Positions 1 through 43,100 of a stretch of 55,436 bases of DNA are shown here, piece by piece. Every line of letters starts with the position of its first letter. The stretch's first letter is position 1. Source of the DNA: Alloascoidea hylecoeti. Lineage: Eukaryota. The position numbers were made by a program, and so were the translations under genes. The stretch covers positions 869,048 through 924,483 of the forward strand of contig BCKZ01000006.1 of NCBI GenBank assembly GCA_001600815.1, in the 5' to 3' direction. Below the pieces are notes generated by a model. It saw only the letters and a program-made list of their open reading frames with translations. It was not told the origin of the DNA and made no database searches.

Positions 1-1857
1 TAATTCAAGGCTCTATATATTTTTAATGCCCTGTAATCGCTATTGTAATTAACGCTCGTGCTAGAAATCTTAAAATAATTCATTAATATGACATATGCAT
101 ATATTTTGGTTTGTACGGCTGGAGTGCGGCTGAATATGCTGCATGAAATAATTTGATTTTAGATCTTTCTTATATTGGGCTAGCGCTAATTAATCAATAA
201 TCAAATAAAATCTCCGATGAGAAAGCTTTTAAAATCGAAAATTAATTAATGAATAATCGCAAAGTTTTGAAGTGCAACAGAACACTCTATATATGCATGG
301 AAGTTTAGCCAACGGTATTTAACTACAGTGCATACATCTAGGTATAAGATCTTATAATTATAAGATTATACCAGTATAGAGTATAAGTTTATACCTTAAG
401 ATTATATCAATTATACCGGCGCCGGATTGTGATTTGAAATGTTAACGCCTGGAAATGAACCAAACTTATAAAGTAATATTTATTATAATTATGACATGAG
501 TAGTTCTAGCTACTAGTTCCTATTATAACTCCTAAGAGTTGGGACTCGGGAGTGTACATGTAATTAATGAGATTATCAAATATAAAGCGGCCATGGCCCA
601 TGATTATAATTATAAATTATCATGCGAAAGGCGTCGGATTCTGATTGAAATTGTTAATGGTAAATGCAGCTTGCGCTATATAAGGCTTATAAGGTCCATA
701 TTGATCAAGTTAAAATTAATATTTGACCCATATATTACATTGTTAATTGGGGCCCAATTTGGGGGTAACCAAGGTTTGTGAATATTAATATAAAACGGTC
801 TAGATCCGAAACTCATATCTGATAACTGTGTTGATGAAGGATATTAAAATACTCTTAACTTATTAATTAACGTTAGTAACTTAGTATGATATCATGATAG
901 TACTGTACATGTATAATCTCTCATTCGAAAAATTTGAATATAAATTGTGTATCTAGTTATACACTATTTGAGAGCAATAAAATATAAATTTTAAATTTAG
1001 CTATGTTTTGTGTTCTATGATTATAATAGTTCTGATCACCCGAAGATGCCTGAGACTAACGATCCCGTGAAGCACCTACAAAAAAGGCTACAATTATTAT
1101 GCATAGTACAATATACCCTATATAATTACCTTGCAATTGGAAGAAAATAAACGTTACCATTAAATACATACGACAATAATGTTTATCAGCTGTGCCATAT
1201 AATTGTAATTCACATATATATATATATACATCGATATCGATTACAAGTACTAATATCTCTATATAATGTTCTAATTAGAAATATATACTAATTATGATAT
1301 TAGTAGCAAGCATATGCATATAACTATTCTTTCAGTTAAGTAATGTAACCTATATAGAAATCAAACATGTGTTTTAATTACAAAAATTCTAGAGATCCTG
1401 AAAGACTGATTGACTGCCTTAAGTTTTCAAATCGTTTATAAGGTCTTAAACCTACAACGAGGGAGCAAAGACAGTATATATACCAGCCACAGGTAGCAAC
1501 TATCGTGCTGTGTAACGGACAATATATAATCTATTATTATTCCTTTGGCTAGAGGAGATGTGTCCCAGTATTAATATTTAATTATAAGCTCAAACTCAAA
1601 AAGCCTGAGATACTGATATCGATGTCGATATTAACATAAAATATTGTCATAAATACAATAGAAAGCCTTTAATTATAAGACAAGTTTAAGAGAACTATAT
1701 ATAGTATGCATATACGTAATTATAAAAGAGTCTCATATCTAAACTCTCATTCCACTTCAACTATATATATTGTTTTATTCTTTTGATATTTTCCTAAACG
1801 TTAACACTTCTTACTCAGATTTGATTTTAAGTTCAAGTGTAGTTAATCTATAAAGAT

Positions 1858-6463: not shown

Positions 6464-7593
6464 TCATACTTTATAACTAAGTTCTGCAATATCGGATAAT
6501 TCTTTAAATTGGATATAGTCAGCTGTCGATAAGTCACCAAACTGTTTCCATGATCTATCGAATTCTCTTGCAAGGCCCTCAGATCCAGATCGAGTCGTAG
6601 TCCAAATGCTTTGGTTGAGGATTTTGTTCTAATAATATATTGGTTAGTTTGTAGAATTTGAAAACAAAAAAACATATTATCTTACCCTTTCCCTATCTTC
6701 TTCCATTCTATGAAGAATTTGTTCTTTTGCAAGGACCATTACCGGCTCGGTTGTTTTTGATGGTGATGGTTTCTTCAGAGCTCTTAATTTCAAGTCAATA
6801 AGAACTTGCCAGGCACCACTAATTCCTTTTAACCCAGAGAGCTTGAGTCCATTGATATCAGCGGTAATTTTGGTATCAATCTTACCTCTATCCACATAAT
6901 CTTTAGTAGCGTCATCTTTTGTTTCATGATCTGTTTCTACATCTATATTCGAAGTATTCAGTTTCCGCCGTTTGAAATCAGTGTTATAATTATTTCCATT
7001 TTGGTAATCATCACCTTTACCATTTGTAATAGACGTGTACTTTATCATCCCATCACAAGAAACACCTAGAGATTTTTCTATATTCTTTAGAACATTCGTT
7101 GAATTTGTTAAATTAACTAATGAGTGTTGCCCTGGGGGAATGACTTTTGAGTAGATTGTAGGTAGGTTCACAATTAAGTTTATTAAATATGGTACATTTT
7201 CTTTCTTGGTTTCACTAATCTCAGTCTCTGAATTTTTCACAGCACCAGATATTGGATCAATAATATTTGAGATCGTTATTTGTTTTGCTATCGTGTGCTG
7301 TTTAATTACTTTAATTAAGGAATCTATAAAATACAAAATATTGAGCCGAGCATTAATTGTTGACTGTTATAATTAGAATTTAGAAGGAAAAGACACTTCT
7401 TCAGTAAAAGAAGCTCACAATTTATTAGACATCATACCTTATCTAAAACTTCCAGTATACATGAAAACAAATCTTCTTCTAGTTCGCCATGTTTCATCGC
7501 GAAAATAATAACTTTGTCATCCAGAGGTGTTGTAGCTGATACCCGTGATAGAAGCTGGGTAAACTGTAGTCTTGCTTCAAAGGGATCCATCAT
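6464..7593 (-). CDS. CTK3: CTD kinase I subunit gamma; exons 7593-7438, 7363-6686, 6628-6464
   Basis: Starts MMDPFEARLQF; phase-0 introns 7437-7364 (GTATGA..TTCTAAT..CAG) and 6685-6629 (GTAAGA..ACTAAC..TAG); spliced product contains INARLNILYFIDSL and HRMEEDRER-NKILNQSIW...EFDRSW, typical of the Ctk3 N- and C-terminal domains. Confidence 0.9.
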
Positions 7594-18591: not shown

Positions 18592-21500
18592 CACTAATCA
18601 CTTTGTCACGAACTAAGTGTTCAACGAAAAACGAACGTGGATATGGATATTATTGAATCTAAAAGATACCCAAAATCAGAACTCCAAAGATTTAAATCCC
18701 GGTTAAGGATGCTATGTTTGTTTTATATGTTTTTACAGAAAATATCAATTATAAATTAAACATAGGATGTCATGAATTTATGTCCAAATTATGTACAACT
18801 TTATTTTTTAACTCATTTGAAAATATGCATATGGATAACGTCAAATAATATTTTTCCTCGAATTTCGGCGGGTGATTGAGAATGAGTAAAGAGTTTGTCG
18901 CAGAACATCGATATGTCGCTTCAGAACCGCCTGGCGGTACATCATATGCAAGATGAAATCTTGAGATGCATAAATGTATCCATGCATATTTCCGAATCTT
19001 TGCAATTTGGTATACGCATAGATTCGATCCGTTCATATAAAAATATTATTTAATATTGATTTGAATTTGAAAGTGAATGCATCATGATCAAAATATTGAT
19101 CTTCTACCGGTGTGACAGTCATTGGGACTATGATATTACTGGAAATAAACTATCATTAACAACTTATCAATATTTAAATAAAACTTGATGCACATTTGTG
19201 TGAAAACTGTAACTAGGACTGAGGGTTATGATTATTATACAAAACTAACTTTTTTCTTTAAATTTCGAAATTTCCAATTGCGGACAATACGGAGTCTATT
19301 TTTCTATTAATTAATAATTAAATTTTCTATAAGATTAATTTACACGAATTAATGTTCCAACTTTCAATATTTGCAATAGCTACCTGATTAATCGCAGCCG
19401 TGTATATATTTCAAGAGACTTTCCAAATATTATATGACAATAGATCTAGAATATCTCTAGTTGATAGTTGTTGTTGAAGATTAATAACTCGATTATGCTA
19501 TATTACTTAGTTTAAGCCAAATTATAAATAACATACATTTAGTATCATTTAGTAAATATTATATATACTTATAGTTGACTTATAATTAGATCAGTAGTTG
19601 CAGTTCTAGATATAAAAAAATACGCTTAATTCAATGCTTAAATAAGAGGGAGTCAATTATAAAACTATAAAATAAACAGCGTTGTGTCAATTGCAATTGC
19701 AATTGTTACCCATATTATTAATCAGATTACCAGTTCGAGAAAATCATACCGGTACCGGTAACTCTATATAATATAATATAATATAATATAATATAATGTA
19801 AGTAAGCAAGCTGATACAGACAAAAATATATATCAACTTCCATATTTATTATCTTATTGCTTTTTAATTAATAGTTTTTTATCGTCCATGGTATTCGAAT
19901 TCCTTTATCCTAACAAAAATGTATTACATTTATAAGATATTTTAAGTCTAACTTTTTATATAGGAATTCAATGAAAGTACCTCTAAACTGTATGTAGGAT
20001 ATAAAAACATATAAATGTCTAGAAAAACCATCTCAAATCTTCGAAACTATACACATATAACCTCATAGCAGTATCTACTTTATAAATCAGGATCCAGCTG
20101 TTGCCTACCTATATGATGATTCCGAAAGCTTATAGAGATTTTCTTTCTATTTCCCGGTTATGTACGATCGAATACAATTAAATATTCAGTTGCCAATTGC
20201 AATTACAATTACAATTCAGCTGAAGTAAGTCTACTATGGCCAATAATCATATATGAATCTGTGAAATCTCATGCTATTGCTAATATTAAAAATTGGATAT
20301 AGATCTAGAACTTATGATCAGCAGTTGGTAGAAATTTAATTATAAGATTGGCTAAGTTCATGAGTGATTATATATTTATGTCACATAAATGCTTAAGGTT
20401 AAGCTTATAAATAAGTATGAATTACAATTGTAAATTATAAATTACTAGTATAATTCTATGGCTAAATTTAAGTATGATTCTATATCAGAGTTAGTGCTTT
20501 ACCTCATAGTAGGCTCATACAATTGACAAATGACAACAATTAATGAGATCATAAACAACGGTTTCGGAGCGCGGCTCCATTGTTACGCCGATGTCATTGT
20601 AGCATGTACCTCGCTCGGCATGCAATGTATGCGGATGTCTCGGTTTTCGGCGGTTTCAGTGACAAATCAACTGCTTACATCGAAAGCTTCGCTGGCGGCA
20701 AAAAGAAAATTTTCATGTATGTCATATTCAAATAAGTGTGTAGTTGCGATGTTGTAGAATAATTATATTAATATTAATTCGCCATTAAATCACTAATTAT
20801 AATTATCTATAATTATTCCTATTATGCATATGCATATGCATATTCATTTCACCATAAATATAGCTATAGGATTTTCTTAAATTTAAAATATAGGTGAAAT
20901 TGTTAACATCTATTTCTATACAATACATTGATAGTTACTGGAGCTGGTTATTATGTGCGAATATTTATACAGTTTAATTTAGAAATGATTTGAATTGCTT
21001 TTGTTTAAGGTTCAACTTATTAAGGTGTAGGTTCCTACGCCAGGGGAAACCCGAAAATAAAATAATGCAGCGCTTAAAACTCACCTTCTTTTTAACCAAC
21101 CACCACCAAAAAAACCTCAATTCAAAAGTGGGAAAAGACAATCAATGTTTAAGATTACATAAGGCTTTTTTTGCGTGCAGCTGAACCCTAAAGTACTCCG
21201 TGCCAAGAACCCAAAATATTTCGCCGTTTAGGAATATAAGTTAATTAAATAAAACTCCTCCAATTGAAGAGTTTAATAAAACAAAATGAAAACTCTCTGT
21301 TTTCCAGTAAGATGAAATAGTAGAAAATGTCCACTAAGAAAATTTCCAAACGTGGCTACACTATTGATAGATAATTGTTTATGATTGTATATCCCAACGC
21401 GAGTTAATTCAAGTTTACACAGTTCGAAACGTTTGCAGATATCAATAACAGTGAATGAGCATTAAGCGAGAAACCAACGAGTTGCGGCTTTTTTAGATAG

Positions 21501-21674
21501 ATATGAAAAGATTTCTTACAAGCCGCCTAACTTTCTTGATCCTTATAGACTCTTGGCAAAGGATAAAATAGCATATAAAGCTGGTTCAAATGATACAAGT
21601 GACAAATATAAATACAAACCATGTAACTTTTTACAATGCGGAGAACACTAGCTAGTTGTATTTTTAGCGATGTC

Positions 21675-21767
21675 TGTTAAAGTTCAAAGTGCCTGTTCTC
21701 CCAGTTGCGCCAAAAAGCCAATCGACTCTTTAGTGAACTGTTCTAAGAGTGTAATATATATCCAACA
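21675..21767 (-). repeat. 3' LTR of the TRIM-like element
   Basis: 93 bp, identical base by base to 21958-22050. Confidence 0.95.
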
Positions 21768-21917
21768 CACCCCCCAACCTTAGGCAGGTCACTTTACTAA
21801 TCGCCATATCTGCTCACCCCCGTGATCTTGCGGGTTTCGGACTTCTTGCAGACTGACTCGGACATGCGTTACCCTACTAAGCCTCAACTAGACTGATGTA
21901 AACTACCGTCCTACGGC

Positions 21918-22043
21918 GGACTCGAACCTGATGCCTCTCGTGGCGGCGCCGCTACCATGTTAAAGTTCAAAGTGCCTGTTCTCCCAGTTGCGCCAAAAAG
22001 CCAATCGACTCTTTAGTGAACTGTTCTAAGAGTGTAATATATA
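21918..22043 (-). promoter_or_regulatory. Putative RNA polymerase III promoter in the TRIM-like element (TATA, A-box, B-box)
   Basis: TATATATT at 22043-22036; A-box TGGCGCAACTGG at 21995-21984 (fits TRGCNNARYNGG); B-box GGTTCGAGTCC at 21928-21918 (fits GGTTCGANNCC); 55 nt between the boxes. Confidence 0.6.
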
Positions 22044-22050
22044 TCCAACA
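21958..22050 (-). repeat. 5' LTR of the TRIM-like element
   Basis: 93 bp, TGTTGGATATATATT...CTTTAACA on the minus strand, immediately followed by the PBS. Confidence 0.95.
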
Positions 22051-22259
22051 ATGTCAAGAAGCCCTTAAAGGTGCTGATTCCAGTGGAGTTTCCGTCTATT
22101 CCTCACTCGATTCCTCTTCGAAAGGAACTTGACATATATGTTCAATGGGTGATTCCACTCTCTCCATGATTATTGTTATATCATAAAATGTCCAGGCTCG
22201 TTACTTGTTCACAAAGTGGTTATATATATTGAGAGGATCAAAACTGCTTTCACCCTTCC

Positions 22260-22930: not shown

Positions 22931-24010
22931 AATGTTAAGTAAAATTTATATTTACATTCTTTAGTTTTCAATTGTTCATTGTGGTGAGATTTTTGGTTGG
23001 GTGGTTCAGAAGGTGTGTCCAAACTAAATTGAAGTCGCCCTATAGATTCCAAGAAGCTTCCAATTAAGAATCCTATGACTAATTATTGGTAGTTTTCCTT
23101 TTTAAATTCAAAATAAAAACTATGGTGCATCGCATTTGGGCATTTGCTAATATAAAACACTAAAATATTATGAATCACCAACAACATGGTCAATTGTAGT
23201 GTTACTTGAATACAAGTATTCTCAATTACATGGAAAAGATGAATCAACACATAACAATCGATAGCTGGTTATATTAATTAGATAGAATTATATAAGGGTT
23301 GTATTTTTATTGGTTTAAATAATGCAGTTAACCCAAAAATAAGTGTTTACTAAAACAACAAAAGAAAAAATCCACTTGAATTCACTAGATATTTTGTATA
23401 GATAAATTACTTATCCCTAATACATTCTACTAACATAATGTATCCATTCTTCTATTAACGTTTTCAGTTCAAAGTTGGAGAGTTTCCTGTTCTTTTTTAC
23501 CATATTTTCCATCGGCATTATTGTTATTTAACTAAATTTATTACTTAATTAGACATTTTATACGTTGTCCCACAATTATGAGTTTGACGCTTTAAATTGC
23601 GATGAAAAAAGTAACTTGAGCTTACTAATTTAAAGCTTACTATATGGTAGATAAAAATTCTTTTTTATTTTATTGCAAGTTTAAAATAGTAATAAATAAA
23701 ATTTTAAGAGTACTAACTATATATTTATTTTACTTTTAACAACTTTTCAATTACAAATTCGAATTGTACCTTTCTAATCAAACATGAAGGCTTAAATTTA
23801 TATATTTAACTCAATTACGCTTTTTATAATTTAGTTATTATGTGGGTATTTATTCAGAATTAATTGTACACATTGTCCTAAAATAGATAAAAGAGATTTG
23901 ATATCATATTTTATAGGATTAAGATCGTTTACAACTTTTCTTTCATCATAAATTCTATTAAAACTATCTTTATACTAAACACGTTAGTACCCAATATGTC
24001 TAAACAGCTA

Positions 24011-24200
24011 AACTTGATTCGTAAACCAGTTGTAAATATATTGAGACACTATTGTATTATATTGTAATAAGAAGAATTAGACCAGATGTATTAAAGAAAT
24101 TTATATCTTATTTATCTCAACTACTGAACTTGATTCGTAGAGCAGCTATAAATAAATGGTGATATACTTGTATTATGTTGTATATTGGATAAGAAGTTAA
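24011..24200. repeat. Degenerate direct duplication, period about 116 bp
   Basis: AACTTGATTCGTA...TTGTATTAT(A/G)TTGTA...TAAGAAG starts at both 24011 and 24127. Confidence 0.65.
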
Positions 24201-25047
24201 TTGAATGGTTATCTTTAGAAAGAGGCGAACATAAGCTATTTAAATGAGTAAAATGAGGTTTAAACTTTAAAACACGCTGACAATAAACAAGTCATAAATA
24301 TAGTTTCGTACTAATGAGTTATACATATAAACCTAAAAGGCCGATAGGTAAGTATGTTGTTACTAAAACGAAATACACAATTGACCGTAGAAAACTCAAT
24401 GGGGGGAATTTTTAATTATCTACTATATCTGATATTAATACATTAAATTTTGGGGCACTTTAACTTATAATTATCATCAATGTTTCAATGGATATATTTA
24501 CATATATAACAGCTGAAATTGAGGCCAAAACGTTTGAGAATAAGTTAATATTATATTATATATTGTAAATTTCACTGTGGTGATTTCCCTTAGCATTCTA
24601 CAACTAGTATTAAAAATTATGATCTCTATAATAGACATTAACGTTAATATCAATACATGTACAATCAGAAAAAGTTTATAACTAGATCTAGTACAACTAC
24701 TATTAGTAAATATAAATAAATCTATAAGTTCATCATAAATTTCTGATGAATAGTATCAGCAAGTGATTTGATTTGTGTATTAACCGGATCCACTGTTGAT
24801 GTCCTGAGTTCGATCAGTAATTATTAAAGCTTATACTGAAAGATGAAGTTAAAGACCAGAAATATCTGTTGATTATAATTCGAATTACTATGTTAACAAA
24901 ACAGGAATGTGATAATCTGTAAAACAAAAACAATCTACATACTATGGACAACTATAAACTTTATTAACATAAAACTCTCCTTATAAATCAAATCAAATCC
25001 TATCTAGTTTAATCTTAATCTTATAGTAAAATAAGTTTAATTAAACA

Positions 25048-25690: not shown

Positions 25691-28600
25691 AGGTTTCAGG
25701 TTACCGTAACTTTGTTAGACTAGTAAGTATAGACGATGCTACCTAAACTATAGATCTTAAATTCTAAATCCTGTTGCTTTATTTGATATAGTACAACATA
25801 CATATAGTATAAAATTGCTATACGAGATTGCAGACTATATAAAGAGTAGATATTCCCTTTTAATAAAACTTATCGGCTATCAGCCAATAGCTATTCAACT
25901 ACAAAAATGGTGTCGAGAGATATTTTTGAAATTGGATATTTTGTGTTTAGTATTAGTAGTTTGTTATAATAAAAGTTATTACAACAATCCTGACCTATAA
26001 AATGAAGGCAGACCCCTTATACGGGTAGTTAAAGAAACGTCCGTTACCAACGGACACCTTTTTCTACCGTCGTATCCAATTAACAATACTATGATTAATA
26101 TAATATAATTAATATAGAATATAATTAATATTGCCACCAAACCTGAATACTCTGTATATGGCACTTGGCAAATCATCATACACGATACAACTAATAAAAT
26201 TTTATAACAATGGACCAAAGAAACTAGGTTGAAGAGTAGGCCTAGGTGGAAACTTGAAATTGAAGTCATAATCACTATACGTATGCATATTTAATCTCAT
26301 GCAAACTGGATACAAAGAAGTTGAAAGAACTGGTAATAAATTACTAATAATCATATTAATTATATATTATTTCAACTTATTAGATTGATAAAAGTTAATC
26401 CTTGTAATTGGTATATTATTTGAATTTTACGTTATCGTTATGATTGTAATTGGTATTGTTTATGATATTGATTGTTCGTTTGCGTACGTTGCGCCCGTAC
26501 ACGTGGCTGTGTGTAAGTATCAGCTAAAACATGTTAACTGTTTGATTGTTGAGGTTCGGTACGAAGTTGGTATAGGGCTCTTTGTTAGTTAGTTCTAGTT
26601 TTATTTATAAGGCTTATATTAATTGGCTAGACATAAGTTACATGCCTTATTGATGTCAATTACAAACTATACCTGTGCTCCACAAGCGCTTTCAACCATT
26701 TAATATAAACTTTATAAATCACTTATAAAGACAGAGAAAGAGAAAATTAAGCATACGAAGTTATGAACACATAGAACACATAGAACACAATCACAATTAT
26801 AAACATATTTACCCAAGTGCCGGTCTTGAACAAAAATATAACATTATATACTGTATTTAGGCTATAATCTAGATGATTAAGTCCAGCAAGCATAAGGGAA
26901 ATGCGGTGTGTACGAGCAAATTAAAGAAAAAAGAGGTAACTATATAACTAGCTTACAGATAATTTACAATTATAATTATTATATCGGTTTAAAAGCCCAT
27001 AGGGTTCAGATACTCAACCGCTATCGCAGTTATCGGTCTGATCATGAGAAATCATAATTATAACATTAATTAGTAACAGTTATTACGACAAAAAGCGATC
27101 GCGAGTTGCCATAATATATACCAATGCATATAATAAATATTGAGATATTGAGAAGAGAGGATTCTATATATGTGAAATTGTTATAATTTTACAGAGGGTA
27201 ATGGAGAGAAAAGAGTGTGTACCACTGTGCAGGCTCGCATGTTGGTTTTATTTTTCTATAGGCCTAGCTATAGAGTGACGTTAACAATAAAATATATATA
27301 GTAATTAACACAATTCAATACAAATTCACAGCAAAGTGTACGTTCACAACATCCTCCTGAGTCCAAACACAAACATTCTTGAATACTCTCTTACAAAATC
27401 AAATATTCCTTAATTGTTCTGCTAACGGAATGTTTGAAAATTCATTAATAAACCATTTAAAAGATGGTAGGCTTAAGCCCGGGAGGGATTAAGTTGTATT
27501 TTCGGACAGATCTATAGCTAGATAAAACCGATCATTGTGGCAGGAAAAATATGCGACGTTTAATTAATAAATATTGTGTGATTTAGAAGGTGCGCATAAC
27601 TTTTTTAATCAGCCTCGGAATTGAAAACTTAATAAAAAAGCTCAACTGTTATTGTAGGCTTAGTAAATATAAATCATAAGCCTAAGAAAGAATTAGATCT
27701 ATATAGTGATATCAGTTGTTCTTATAATTAGCTTTCGATTGATTTTAAATTTCGTTCGATTTTAATTTTTCTCTTTACTCTTGCTTTTAAAAGAGTGATT
27801 GAAATCAATGGATTATTATTAAGTTATATCAGCACTTGAAAATAGAATTGTCAAATCAAACTATAAAGCATGGTGATACTGATATACTCCTGTGTATCAT
27901 AATTATTATAATTTCTCTAAGCCTTGGGTAATAATAGGAAATGTGTTAAACCTGGGTAAGTATAGTATTTGGCAGTATCTTATACCCTATATACTAGATC
28001 AACACAAATCTAAAACTGTTTATCCCTAACTCGCGAGTCAGTGGTGGCTAAGCTAAGCCTTAGGTAGGGAGAATCAAAACAAATTAGCCTCAGGTAGATA
28101 CTGCAAGATTAATCAAGATATCTTAGCTATTGATTATGATAGTTCATGGGATACTGCAAATATATATATTATGAATTGAATATCAATCCTGTCTCAAAGT
28201 GCATCGAACATCTGCAAGCGATGAATACGGGCGCGTTTATACATAATTATCAATATTGAACATTCTGAATTTCTGAATATTAGATACCAGATAGTAGATA
28301 TACAAAACAAGAGTAATAAAATTTCAAAGGATGTAAGCACTGGTCAGAGAACAATATATCTCCATTTCGACAGCGGGGTTTTTCGGCAATGAAAAGGTAT
28401 GAAAATCCAAAGTTTAAAGAGTATGTAACCAAGAAGTTTTCCCCTTCAGAATCCGATATGAAAAAATGTTGACGCAATATTAATACGTTCTACATGATTA
28501 TATCAATATTAATTTATATGTCAGATTCTAATATTAATTAATATATATATATATATATATATGTATAAGCTTATACATTCCCAGTTCATACCTTATAAAT

Positions 28601-36630: not shown

Positions 36631-37995
36631 CTATAGCTGTAGTATCTTTAGATCGTATCTAGACCCTTTTTGTTGTTCGATATTTCTTTTTATTAGCTCA
36701 AATGCCTCTTTATTTGGAAGTTTTTCTAAGATATTGATTGTAATATTACTATTCAAAGGAATATCAAATTTATAACTAGTCTCAATACAATTATCAATTA
36801 AATTTCTTTTTATTTTCTTGGTGGAAACTGCGAATGGGATATCTAAAACCGTTGAGAATAGCACTCCAATAGAATCGCTGAATGTTTTATTTCTTATTGA
36901 GCAAGCTCCTTGATTTATATAGTAATTTCGATGAGCGTTCCTAGTAACCTCTATAAAGCTGGCGTCTTCATATTCTTCCCCAAGTTTCATTAATGATTTC
37001 ACAACCTTAATTACCTGAGACAAATAGCTGCTGTTTCTTTTATAATGAGGACTGTAGACTATAATCTCCGAAGATGATGGCGAAGTATCAACCTTGTTAA
37101 TATAAATTTTCAAGCCACCATGTTGATAGCTTGGAGGTGGGGTATATGGAACAATATCCCCCTTATGCTCATGTCTGATGTTTCCAAAAAGTATCCCTTC
37201 CTGGATTTTACTATAGGAGATGTTAGGGTCAAACATCCCATCTAGATAATTTACAAACTTTGTATTTCCAACTCTTGGAGAACCCCAAGACAAAATCAAA
37301 GGTCTGTACCCTAATAGATCGAGCTCAATTCCAATTAACTGGGAAACTGCACCACCTAAGGAATGGCCAATAACAATTGTTTTATAATCTGAGAAATTTG
37401 AACACATTGCGTCAATTGTCTTATTTACTATATCCCAGGTTTGTTCCGCCGCCTCATAAAATCCACTGTGAACCTTACATCCCTCATATTCTCTGCTATT
37501 CATATTTGAAATGATTCCTTTTTTAATAGAAATAGGTTCGTAGTTGGTCATGCCTAGAGATATATCTACAATCCAATTATTGAATGTTGTTGATCCACGG
37601 AAATTTATTATATTTGCTTTTCGACCATGATCTATATAGAATAACGTAGCAACTCCCGCGGAAAGACTCTCGTTTGGTTTCCAAACTTTATATAGTGTAA
37701 CATTTTCAAAAGTTGTATCATCATTGCAATATAGCGGACAACCAGCATTTGTAGAGGACCATCCATCAGTGAAAAGGCAATATGCTAAACTACTCAGTTT
37801 TGCGAAAAAATACATTTCCTCCATTAAGTACTCACTAACAGCGGATAAAGATACGAGACTCGAGCTTAGACCAGCTATCGTGTCATTTGTACCTTTAACA
37901 CTGGTGCTCGTAGTTTGACAAGCCACAAGCTTGTAAGAACAGATGGTTATAAATGCCAGTGCAAATTTCCCAATATTTGAAAAATGAATGTACAT
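36631..37995 (-). CDS. Secreted class-3 (Lipase_3) lipase, paralogue A
   Basis: Signal peptide; LAYC, FRGSTT..NW, CKVHSGFY, GHSLGGA nucleophile elbow, GSPRVGN, GDIVP, AHRNYY. Confidence 0.92.
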   Translation of the reverse strand: MYIHFSNIGKFALAFITICSYKLVACQTTSTSVKGTNDTIAGLSSSLVSLSAVSEYLMEEMYFFAKLSSLAYCLFTDGWSSTNAGCPLYCNDDTTFENVTLYKVWKPNESLSAGVATLFYIDHGRKANIINFRGSTTFNNWIVDISLGMTNYEPISIKKGIISNMNSREYEGCKVHSGFYEAAEQTWDIVNKTIDAMCSNFSDYKTIVIGHSLGGAVSQLIGIELDLLGYRPLILSWGSPRVGNTKFVNYLDGMFDPNISYSKIQEGILFGNIRHEHKGDIVPYTPPPSYQHGGLKIYINKVDTSPSSSEIIVYSPHYKRNSSYLSQVIKVVKSLMKLGEEYEDASFIEVTRNAHRNYYINQGACSIRNKTFSDSIGVLFSTVLDIPFAVSTKKIKRNLIDNCIETSYKFDIPLNSNITINILEKLPNKEAFELIKRNIEQQKGSRYDLKILQL

Positions 37996-41840: not shown

Positions 41841-43100
41841 TCAAAATTTTTTGTTGGCCTCCATCTCTTCAGAAAGTATCTCTTTGATTTTCTCAAATGC
41901 TTCATAATTTGGTAGCTCTTTAAGATCAGACACCGTCACATTTCTACCCTCAATAGAATCTCTTTTACTAATTAAAGCAGTAAAAGGAATGTTTAGAATA
42001 CTCGAAAAAAGTCCTTCAAGAACATTACCAAATGTTTCAATAATATTAGAACTTGTAACACAACTCGCTTGATTTACGTAGTAAAAAAGATGGCCATAAA
42101 TTGCAACTTCAATAAAGTTGGAATCAGACTCTTCCTTTCCAAACTCAATTAGGGACTCTATTGTTTCAATAAGTGCTGAAAAATACTTTTGAGAATCATC
42201 ATTAGGATTATAGACCACCAACTGTGAAGCACTAGGCGTAAGATCAACCTTGTTGATGAAAAGTCTCATACCGCCATGTTGATATGTTGGAGGGAAAGGA
42301 ACATATGGAACAACATCTCCTTCATGGACTTGTCGGATGTTTCCATAGAGTGTTCCTTGTTGAATCTTATCATATGAGTTCTGGGGATCAAATAATCCAT
42401 TTAAATAACTCACAAATTTTGAATTTCCAATTCTTGGAGACCCCCATGAGAGAACTAAAGGGTCATATCCCAATAAACTCAATTCAATCCCAGCTAACTG
42501 AGCAACAGCACCCCCTAACGAATGGCCCATTATAAATGTTTTATAGTTAGGGTAAATAACATTCATTGCAGTAAAAGTTGCATTTAATCCATCCCATGTT
42601 TGCTGCAATGCCTCATAAAACCCCGAATGAACTTTGGCACCATTGTAACCAGATGAAGAGACAACTCCCTTTCCGACAACTATTGGAGTATAGCTAGTGG
42701 GAACTATAGACAAATCTGCTGCCCAGTCATTTAATGTTGTGGATCCACGAAAATCGATGATCTTAGCTTTCCTTCCATGATCAACATAAAATAGCGTAGG
42801 TATAGCTTCAGAGAGACTACTACTAGGTCTCCAGACATCAAATAATGCAACTTCATCAAAGGTACTATCACCACAATATAGTGGACACCCTGAATCAGTT
42901 GTAGACCAGCCACTAGTAAGAAGGCAATATGAAAGACTGTCTAATTTAGCAAAGAAATATGTGTTGTTTTCCAAAGATTCACTGATTGAACTGGATAAAG
43001 AAGAAAAAGTAAAACTACTACTGGCTAAACACTTTTCAAATATATTGCAGCTGAGAATGATTAATGGTAACATTGCTTTGGGAGTTTTAAAAAACCACAT
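41841..43100 (-). CDS. Secreted class-3 lipase, paralogue B
   Basis: First ATG at 43100; YFFAKLDSLSYCL, FRGSTTLNDW, KVHSGFY, GHSLGGA, GSPRIGN, GDVVP, GHLFYY; colinear with the lipase at 36631-37995. Confidence 0.92.
   Translation of the reverse strand: MWFFKTPKAMLPLIILSCNIFEKCLASSSFTFSSLSSSISESLENNTYFFAKLDSLSYCLLTSGWSTTDSGCPLYCGDSTFDEVALFDVWRPSSSLSEAIPTLFYVDHGRKAKIIDFRGSTTLNDWAADLSIVPTSYTPIVVGKGVVSSSGYNGAKVHSGFYEALQQTWDGLNATFTAMNVIYPNYKTFIMGHSLGGAVAQLAGIELSLLGYDPLVLSWGSPRIGNSKFVSYLNGLFDPQNSYDKIQQGTLYGNIRQVHEGDVVPYVPFPPTYQHGGMRLFINKVDLTPSASQLVVYNPNDDSQKYFSALIETIESLIEFGKEESDSNFIEVAIYGHLFYYVNQASCVTSSNIIETFGNVLEGLFSSILNIPFTALISKRDSIEGRNVTVSDLKELPNYEAFEKIKEILSEEMEANKKF

Follow-up and report, generated by a model that had tools for sequence, protein, structure and literature searches.

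The window, that is, the whole stretch of 55,436 nucleotides of Alloascoidea hylecoeti analyzed here, carries a gene for Trm2 whose named matches among the best 120 homologues all come from budding yeasts, at about 43-50% identity. It also carries two paralogous ORFs that resemble secreted lipases (36631-37995 and 41841-43100; 71% DNA identity over 300 nt) and flank a glycosidase-like gene, these labels having been given by sequence reading. An 11-kb interval of the window has no ATG-started ORF of 100 aa, and a short element bounded by long terminal repeats (LTRs) has inserted there. The insertion site falls in an old dispersed repeat (21020-21669) with 35 other genome matches at 64-87% identity; the same gene-free interval holds two more dispersed repeats, at 23872-24299 and 25770-25990, of which the former is 93-94% identical to copies on contigs C3 and C37 and is possibly a solo LTR. 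The features of the element, in window coordinates, are as follows.

21670..21674, no strand: left copy of the target-site duplication (TSD) ATGTC; a single copy is left at the empty site
21675..21767, minus strand: 3' LTR, same sequence as the 5' LTR
21701..21712, minus strand: A-box copy of the 3' LTR, not followed by a B box
21712..21716, minus strand: T5 run of the 3' LTR, predicted Pol III terminator
21768..21775, minus strand: polypurine tract (PPT) GGGGGGTG, abutting the 3' LTR
21768..21957, minus strand: non-coding interior of 190 nt; the family form has 210 nt, and 20 nt are missing behind 21863
21918..21928, minus strand: predicted B box for Pol III, GGTTCGAGTCC, located in the interior with its start 30 nt past the LTR end
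21939..21945, minus strand: CGCCACG, complementary to primer tRNA nt 6-12; also present after the PBS of a second element, L184
21946..21957, minus strand: primer-binding site (PBS) of 12 nt, TGGTAGCGGCGC, abutting the LTR; complement of the host tRNAiMet 3' end
21958..22050, minus strand: 5' LTR of 93 nt, TGTTGG...TTAACA
21984..21995, minus strand: predicted Pol III A box TGGCGCAACTGG of the 5' LTR, LTR nt 56-67
21993..22016, minus strand: self-complementary stretch of 24 nt (G-U pairs included), LTR nt 35-58, coinciding with the predicted R
21995..21999, minus strand: T5 run of the 5' LTR, directly ahead of its A box; LTR nt 52-56 are invariant among 95 LTRs
22051..22055, no strand: right copy of the TSD ATGTC

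The two 93-nt direct repeats (21675-21767 and 21958-22050) are 100% identical and lie 283 apart in an element totaling 376 bp; read on its minus strand it consists of an LTR (TGTTGG...TTAACA), the PBS, the interior, GGGGGGTG and the second LTR. The PBS TGGTAGCGGCGC is exactly complementary to the 3' terminus of the host initiator tRNA, for which three genes were found. The longest ATG-started ORF in the element has 22 codons and no mobility protein is encoded; the interior has a GC content of 54% versus 34% for the window, and searches with ARAGORN and Rfam (E up to 10) gave no tRNA, 5S or ribozyme match. The original prediction had described identical 93-bp LTRs, a TSD ATGTC, a 190-bp interior and a 22-codon ORF, all of which proved exact in the sequence; the PBS, the PPT and the TGTTGG start that it named are present as well, with the amendments that the element lies on the minus strand, which makes 21958-22050 the 5' LTR, and that the PBS has 12 nt. 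With a length below 1000 bp, two LTRs, and a PBS and a PPT at the ends of the interior, the element has the build of a TRIM or SMART, the short non-autonomous LTR retrotransposons (PMC10886601).

A 19-nt motif of the LTR has 145 matches in the genome versus none for the reversed control, and the family is therefore not due to chance. The interior has 33 genome matches, 17 of them near full length (33/33 candidates were scored); its commonest form is 210 bp, giving a whole element of 396 bp, and the 20-bp deletion is private to the window copy (1/17 aligned interiors). Seven copies retain two LTRs; they measure 322-396 bp, are flanked by seven different TSDs, and in three of them the LTR pair is identical. 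LTRs were classified over 127 distinct matches within 176 loci of the own genome, with 100 of the 145 motif matches listed: 95 are full length and 32 partial. Among the full-length LTRs, 50 are solo within an exact 5-bp TSD, 3 are solo with one mismatch in it, 6 are solo without a TSD and 36 adjoin a PBS or PPT, the solo count being uncertain in that a short-read draft could collapse young two-LTR copies into apparent solos; the assembly is a draft of 136 contigs with gaps. The LTR sequence of the window recurs unchanged in 15 of the 50 TSD-flanked solo LTRs. Copies of the TRIM often lie within other retroelements or within AT-rich, partly decayed F-box/WD40-like gene copies, as labeled by eye (L005, L023, L006, L010, L022 and L063). 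Targeting to tRNA genes, as in Ty1, was considered and rejected: a tRNA gene is present in only 2 of the LTR-centered loci L001-L126. Separately, a repeat of about 50 nt was seen just upstream of several unrelated tRNA genes (L064-L066, L072, L128, L134, L155 and L160), which suggests another, tRNA-gene-targeting element.

A contig run from another study, a wood-decay metagenome (X3), joins 21669 to 22051; the junction skips 381 letters, five letters fit both sides, and the flanks show one difference from the window in about 2600 letters. Because this is a clean empty site in another study's contig, the window insertion is polymorphic and, as originally predicted, recent. Two further contigs, X1 and X4, enter the LTR and do not count as independent support, since the window may derive from X1, and X4 may come from the same strain. 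The TRIM reading of the original prediction thus stands on 33 interior matches, 17 of them near full length, and on two-LTR copies whose TSDs differ in 7/7 cases; with the 50 TSD-flanked solo LTRs and the empty site attesting dispersal, the element almost certainly represents a young, real TRIM family of a budding yeast.

Exact junctions of an LTR end with the PBS number 43 in the assembly, all 43/43 of them within the loci examined, and each is part of the TRIM or of another LTR family, the others being named B to H. An intact coding element with these 93-bp LTRs was found at none of the 43/43 junctions, nor was the full-length Ty1/copia element sharing the LTR termini to which the original prediction had pointed. 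Comparison of the TRIM LTR and interior with seven coding families yielded nothing in common beyond the 12-nt PBS, which is common to the TRIM and to the copia-type families B, C, D, E and G, and for this reason the TRIM is not a deletion product of one of them. Of 50 matches to RVT_2 (Pfam) in the genome, 42 lie above the cut-off; families B and C carry copia gag and RVT_2 (Pfam), and Gag identity is 33% over 194 aa between D and B, 29% between B and C and 24% between C and D. For family E, a weak resemblance in gag and an end motif that we take to be RNase H-like are the only grounds for its placement. No intact coding copy of these copia families was seen in the loci examined, where some copia stretches read N and may hide an intact helper. 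Two RVT_2 "open frames" of 1933 and 1791 aa were rejected as intact helpers, as the frames run through N; contig C51 was rejected as a 7-kb parent, as it consists of two TRIM halves whose overlap, interior nt 91-149, surrounds an N run and whose partner halves are on contigs C111/C113, two TRIM copies being broken across C51, C111 and C113. The Pfam matches, together with the hybrids between the TRIM and copia-type families described below, nonetheless make it very probable that the TRIM was moved in trans by Ty1/copia machinery, of which no intact helper was seen; in this the originally proposed mobilization is supported, with no single autonomous partner that has this LTR.

Several traits of the coding families may be recorded here. 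Several of them (L060, L057, L030, L051, L052 and L056) resemble Ty1 in starting Gag inside the LTR, and the same frames continue across the PBS, which they translate as H/N-G-S-G; the LTR ends of family D are non-canonical (TA start, AA end) and yet stand at TSD-flanked junctions (L169, L176 and L030). Recombination or nesting among these families also occurs where no TRIM is involved, and many copies are fold-backs or shortened. Fold-back integrants, in which an LTR end is inverted, are frequent both in family C and in the TRIM (L044, L046, L053, L007, L087, L100 and L061), and in L100 and L061 the fold-back point is the 24-nt palindrome.

Fifteen composites of TRIM parts with other families were found (B 6, D 5, E 3, C 1), joined mostly at the PBS. 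Twelve have two definable ends, and 10/12 lie within one 5-bp TSD, with a chance of about 0.0025 each (L009, L089, L031, L169, L171, L176, L173, L170, L175 and L101; the TSD of L101 is counted after a one-base correction and that of L169 sits in a T run). The remaining two of the twelve, L174 and L168, have no enclosing TSD, and L167, L048 and L050 have no definable second end; L113 was rejected as a hybrid, since here a solo LTR of family E, flanked by a TSD of its own (TGGAG), has nested in a TRIM LTR. Three patterns recur. In the first, an inverted and then a forward foreign LTR end is followed by the PBS, the TRIM interior and the TRIM LTR (L009, L169, L170 and L171); the second consists of head-to-head PBS fusions, with D in L176 and with E in L175; and in the third, poly(A) RNA copies are joined to TRIM LTR sequence (L173 and L101). 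The last four bases of the PBS are self-complementary. Since one TSD surrounds the ends of two families, the hybrid existed before integration, which points to TRIM RNA having probably been co-packaged with the RNAs of several copia-type families. What the hybrids reveal is co-packaging, not which family gave the proteins.

A family of orphan ORFs of about 193 aa was noticed among the composites (L030:3592-4170, plus strand; L033:1682-2260, minus strand; L101:518-1018, plus strand; a weak fourth in L046 near 7030-7185). The copies are 80% and 42-44% identical, the genome has five matches in four places, only in or beside LTR-bounded composites, and two copies end in poly(A) fused to TRIM LTR sequence. 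Searches gave no Pfam family, no useful atlas or NCBIfam match and one homologue at 85%; the predicted fold (pLDDT 45.6) was too poor for a structure search, and no parent gene was seen in the genome. Speculatively, these ORFs are possibly captured mRNAs of an RNA virus or another cytoplasmic element.

The identity of the helper admits a second account, a serious contender to which we nevertheless give less than even odds: one promiscuous copia helper may package the TRIM and the RNAs of B, C, D and E alike as passengers. It would fit with the want of an intact coding copy of these families, with their many fold-back or truncated copies and their recombination or nesting with each other apart from the TRIM, and with the non-canonical LTR ends of family D; hybrids with four families at 24-33% Gag identity to one another speak against it, as does the insertion of E into a TRIM LTR with its own TSD (L113), which implies that E ends integrated recently. 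Even a single helper would leave the claims on co-packaging and on the promoter untouched.

Matrices for the Pol III A and B boxes were built from the tRNA genes of the host (12/17 types parsed). The best pair in the element is TGGCGCAACTGG at LTR nt 56 with GGTTCGAGTCC at element nt 123, scoring 29.3 bits versus 16.5-30.2 bits for host tRNA genes and 4.8 bits for the antisense, a score reached in 0/1000 shuffles of either strand. The B box alone scores 17.5 bits (0/1000 shuffles) and is intact in 15/17 interiors, the A box was matched in 4/2000 LTR shuffles, and the A-B spacing of 67 nt is inside the range of host tRNA genes (43-85). Within the LTR alone there is no B box (best score -0.2 bits), nor is there one near the PBS in 7/7 coding families; two TSD-flanked TRIM copies, L006 and L022, are without it. 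General Pol III geometry would place the start near LTR nt 37, and the self-complementarity of LTR nt 35-58 was matched in 2/5000 shuffles, so that the predicted R is the palindrome ending in the terminator. Runs of at least four Ts on the sense strand are confined to the T5 ahead of the A box, one per LTR, and T5 is the commonest terminator of host tRNA genes (20/46). In the 5' LTR this run sits about 15-20 nt after the predicted start, where none of the 46 host tRNA genes has more than three Ts, and a Pol III model therefore requires read-through. A TATA-like stretch at -48 from the A box was rejected as support, since it occurs in 4/46 host tRNA genes, the same as in a control window; a single parent host tRNA for the interior was likewise rejected (best 1/200 shuffles over 40 local-alignment comparisons). 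Going by the sequence, we think it likely, if less so than the co-packaging, that the Pol III promoter is functional.

The combination of a PBS with a B box was searched for as a pattern and recovered at 18 metagenome and 13 viral loci. An LTR repeat was present in 1/31, eight of the loci having in addition been passed through a repeat finder, and the others resemble tRNA genes or chance matches:

L184 (SXGS01568174.1), 1050-1366, minus strand: element of 317 bp with 78-bp LTRs differing at one base

L184 has a TSD TGTCA, a purine tract, an iMet-type PBS and CGCCACG after the PBS; T4 and then an A box stand at LTR nt 53, and the B box has the equal offset of 30 nt. The LTR pair, the A box and CGCCACG lay outside the search pattern, and the LTRs are otherwise unrelated to those of the yeast TRIM. 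Its A box was matched in 2/2000 shuffles in the 3' LTR and is weaker in the 5' LTR (57/2000). The element has two extra T4 runs in the interior and is known from a single contig, and its TSD equals the first 5 nt of its LTR. Against the tRNAiMet of A. hylecoeti it has no excess pairing (1854/2000), a comparison to be read with the caveat that L184's own tRNA may differ. L184 adjoins an intron-rich Rab-like gene on a eukaryotic contig, and its interior repeats the LTR-end motif twice.

Transcription could also follow another course, which we consider unlikely: the element may be an ordinary Pol II TRIM, driven by a TATA-like sequence at LTR nt 8-14, with the A/B-like motifs serving at the RNA level in extended primer-tRNA pairing, in a U5-leader stem or in tRNA mimicry for packaging. 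Interior nt 13-45 indeed pair with the host tRNAiMet (-36.4 kcal/mol, 17/2000 shuffles), and the alignment to the complement of the primer's anticodon arm runs through the B box, which gives the B box a second possible reason; Ty1 has extra primer boxes (PMC5454406), to which CGCCACG may be likened in function, and the proximal T5 is awkward for Pol III. However, at positions not matching the exact complement of the tRNA the sequence shifts to the B-box consensus, the A box, which runs in the sense of the tRNA itself, is unable to pair with the primer, the A-B distance is one found in host tRNA genes, and L184 keeps both boxes at matching places without excess pairing to the tRNA of this yeast.

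We regard it as improbable that the composites are products of chromosomal recombination or of repeat mis-assembly rather than of reverse transcription. The assembly is in pieces and gapped, two TRIM copies are broken across three contigs, and L113 proved to be a plain nested insertion; the joints, however, lie at the 12-nt PBS or at poly(A), neither of them long enough for homologous recombination, and neither process yields one TSD around the ends of two families, as in L009, L089, L169, L171, L176, L170, L175 and L101. Least credible of all is that the element arose by internal deletion from an autonomous one sharing its 93-bp LTRs: assembly gaps could hide such a parent, and in L031 family-B gag and integrase sequence is enclosed by a pair of these LTRs (TSD ATATA), but L031 is 3080 bp long with an inverted gag copy, no RT in the sequence seen and an LTR without the gag start that B's own 349-bp LTR supplies; the seven families and the TRIM have the PBS alone in common, and 43/43 exact PBS junctions and 33/33 interior candidates were covered; nor does an interior common to 33 matches agree with the one-off deletion that the original prediction had named as its refuting case.

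Taken together, a young TRIM with a split Pol III promoter, co-packaged with copia-type RNAs and mobilized in trans by copia machinery, is the account we favor, with a probability of roughly 0.6 for the whole chain. TFIIIC would bind the A box in the 5' LTR and the B box behind the PBS; Pol III would start near LTR nt 37, pass the first T5 and terminate in the 3' LTR, at its T5; the resulting RNA would measure about 320 nt and have a short, self-complementary R of about 16-20 nt. These steps form one proposal, which on balance we find likely. As this promoter would need the LTR plus the interior, solo LTRs and 3' LTRs would be silent. The TRIM RNA would then bind tRNAiMet and be packaged beside the RNAs of several copia-type families; because all strong-stop DNAs would end in one 12-nt PBS, they could anneal across families, and the hybrid cDNA would integrate. 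The putative split Pol III promoter, the palindromic putative R and the hybrids are features beyond the original prediction.

More tentatively, and with the balance tilting somewhat against it, the yeast TRIM and L184 may exemplify an undescribed Pol III TRIM design in distant eukaryotes, in which the promoter spans the LTR-PBS junction and only intact 5' ends fire; on the same reading, a box for primer pairing, and not a captured tRNA or SINE, may have been the origin of the B box. Were solo LTRs silenced by a promoter split in this way between A and B boxes, the regulatory layout would be new, and L184 would be its second example. Under this tentative reading the TRIM would also be a generalist parasite: the initiator-tRNA primer that it has in common with several copia families would be all it requires to enter their particles, and its strong-stop DNA would carry foreign polyadenylated RNAs into the genome as well. 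The genome of this yeast, in which the window insertion is polymorphic between isolates, records the encounters in TSD-flanked hybrids of the TRIM with four divergent LTR families, and both the helper range and the role of the shared primer thereby become testable.

The likeness to TRIMs and SMARTs at large extends to the length of less than 1 kb, the two LTRs, the PBS and PPT bounding a non-coding interior, the 5-bp TSDs and the solo LTRs, and to SMARTs in that the LTR differs from that of the presumed helper; unlike these, the family has a budding-yeast host and an interior without helper homology beyond the PBS. Non-coding LTR elements are known from the yeast Candida albicans, where Tca1 and degenerate families apparently move by trans-activation; to our knowledge they have longer LTRs, and no Pol III boxes have been reported in them. 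The term TRIM reportedly also appears in papers on filamentous fungi. Our literature search, which covered mainly open-access papers, returned no description of a yeast TRIM or of a split-box TRIM; the original remark that such elements were not known to be well described in budding yeasts agrees with the search and is tempered by the C. albicans elements, and any priority for TRIMs in yeasts is provisional. As far as the literature searched goes, the range of TRIMs, whose reported hosts are plants, green algae, hymenoptera, cestodes and bivalves in the text of the survey (PMC10886601), is extended to budding yeasts.

Helenus (TRIMp3; Kojima 2024) has a tRNA-like sequence with boxes A and B inside the LTR, and some of its fungal families prime with the tRNAiMet 3' end (PMC10886601). 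The yeast TRIM resembles it in its tRNA-type A/B boxes, present as internal Pol III promoter motifs (A+B 29.3 bits), in the 5-bp TSD and copia-type priming, and in a size within the Helenus range of 311-1263 bp; it differs in that the LTR has only the A box, the B box standing behind the PBS, and in that no tRNA fold was recognized (ARAGORN, Rfam); with no tRNA-derived pair of A and B boxes inside its LTR, it is not a Helenus. Fungal Helenus is described from Pucciniales and three Agaricomycetes, and a term search of the supplement gave no ascomycete or saccharomycete entry; among 13 supplement passages with the PBS motif, the seven interiors that start with the motif have no B box behind the PBS, and the motif CGCCACGAG has 0 matches there (PMC10886601). 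Cassandra, a 5S-type Pol III TRIM of plants (PMC10886601; PMC7215508), is, according to the survey text, the only TRIM with a validated Pol III promoter, and its R of 18 bp is made by Pol III from the 5' LTR to the terminator of the 3' LTR (PMC10886601). The very short R (about 16-20 predicted here) and the self-complementary folding of the LTR are shared features; in Cassandra, by contrast, the 5S boxes A/IE/C are all in the LTR and transcription has been shown, where here it is inferred, and the 5S rRNA-derived LTR sequence that marks Cassandra and Ajax was not detected in our element (Rfam).

Autonomous Ty1/copia elements differ from the TRIM in the gag-pol that its LTRs do not enclose. Ty1 is primed by tRNAiMet directly behind the LTR and has further boxes complementary to the tRNA as well as palindromes near the 5' end of its RNA, and deleted Ty1 elements of Saccharomyces cerevisiae can move in trans (PMC5454406). 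The TRIM shares with Ty1 and mini-Ty1 the zero-gap tRNAiMet PBS, the boxes behind it and a palindrome that is predicted to lie near the 5' end of the RNA; unlike mini-Ty1 it is natural and non-coding, has no helper similarity and is, judging from its sequence, apparently transcribed by Pol III. Chimeric non-autonomous elements are likewise known between TRIM families in sugar beet (PMC13570524).
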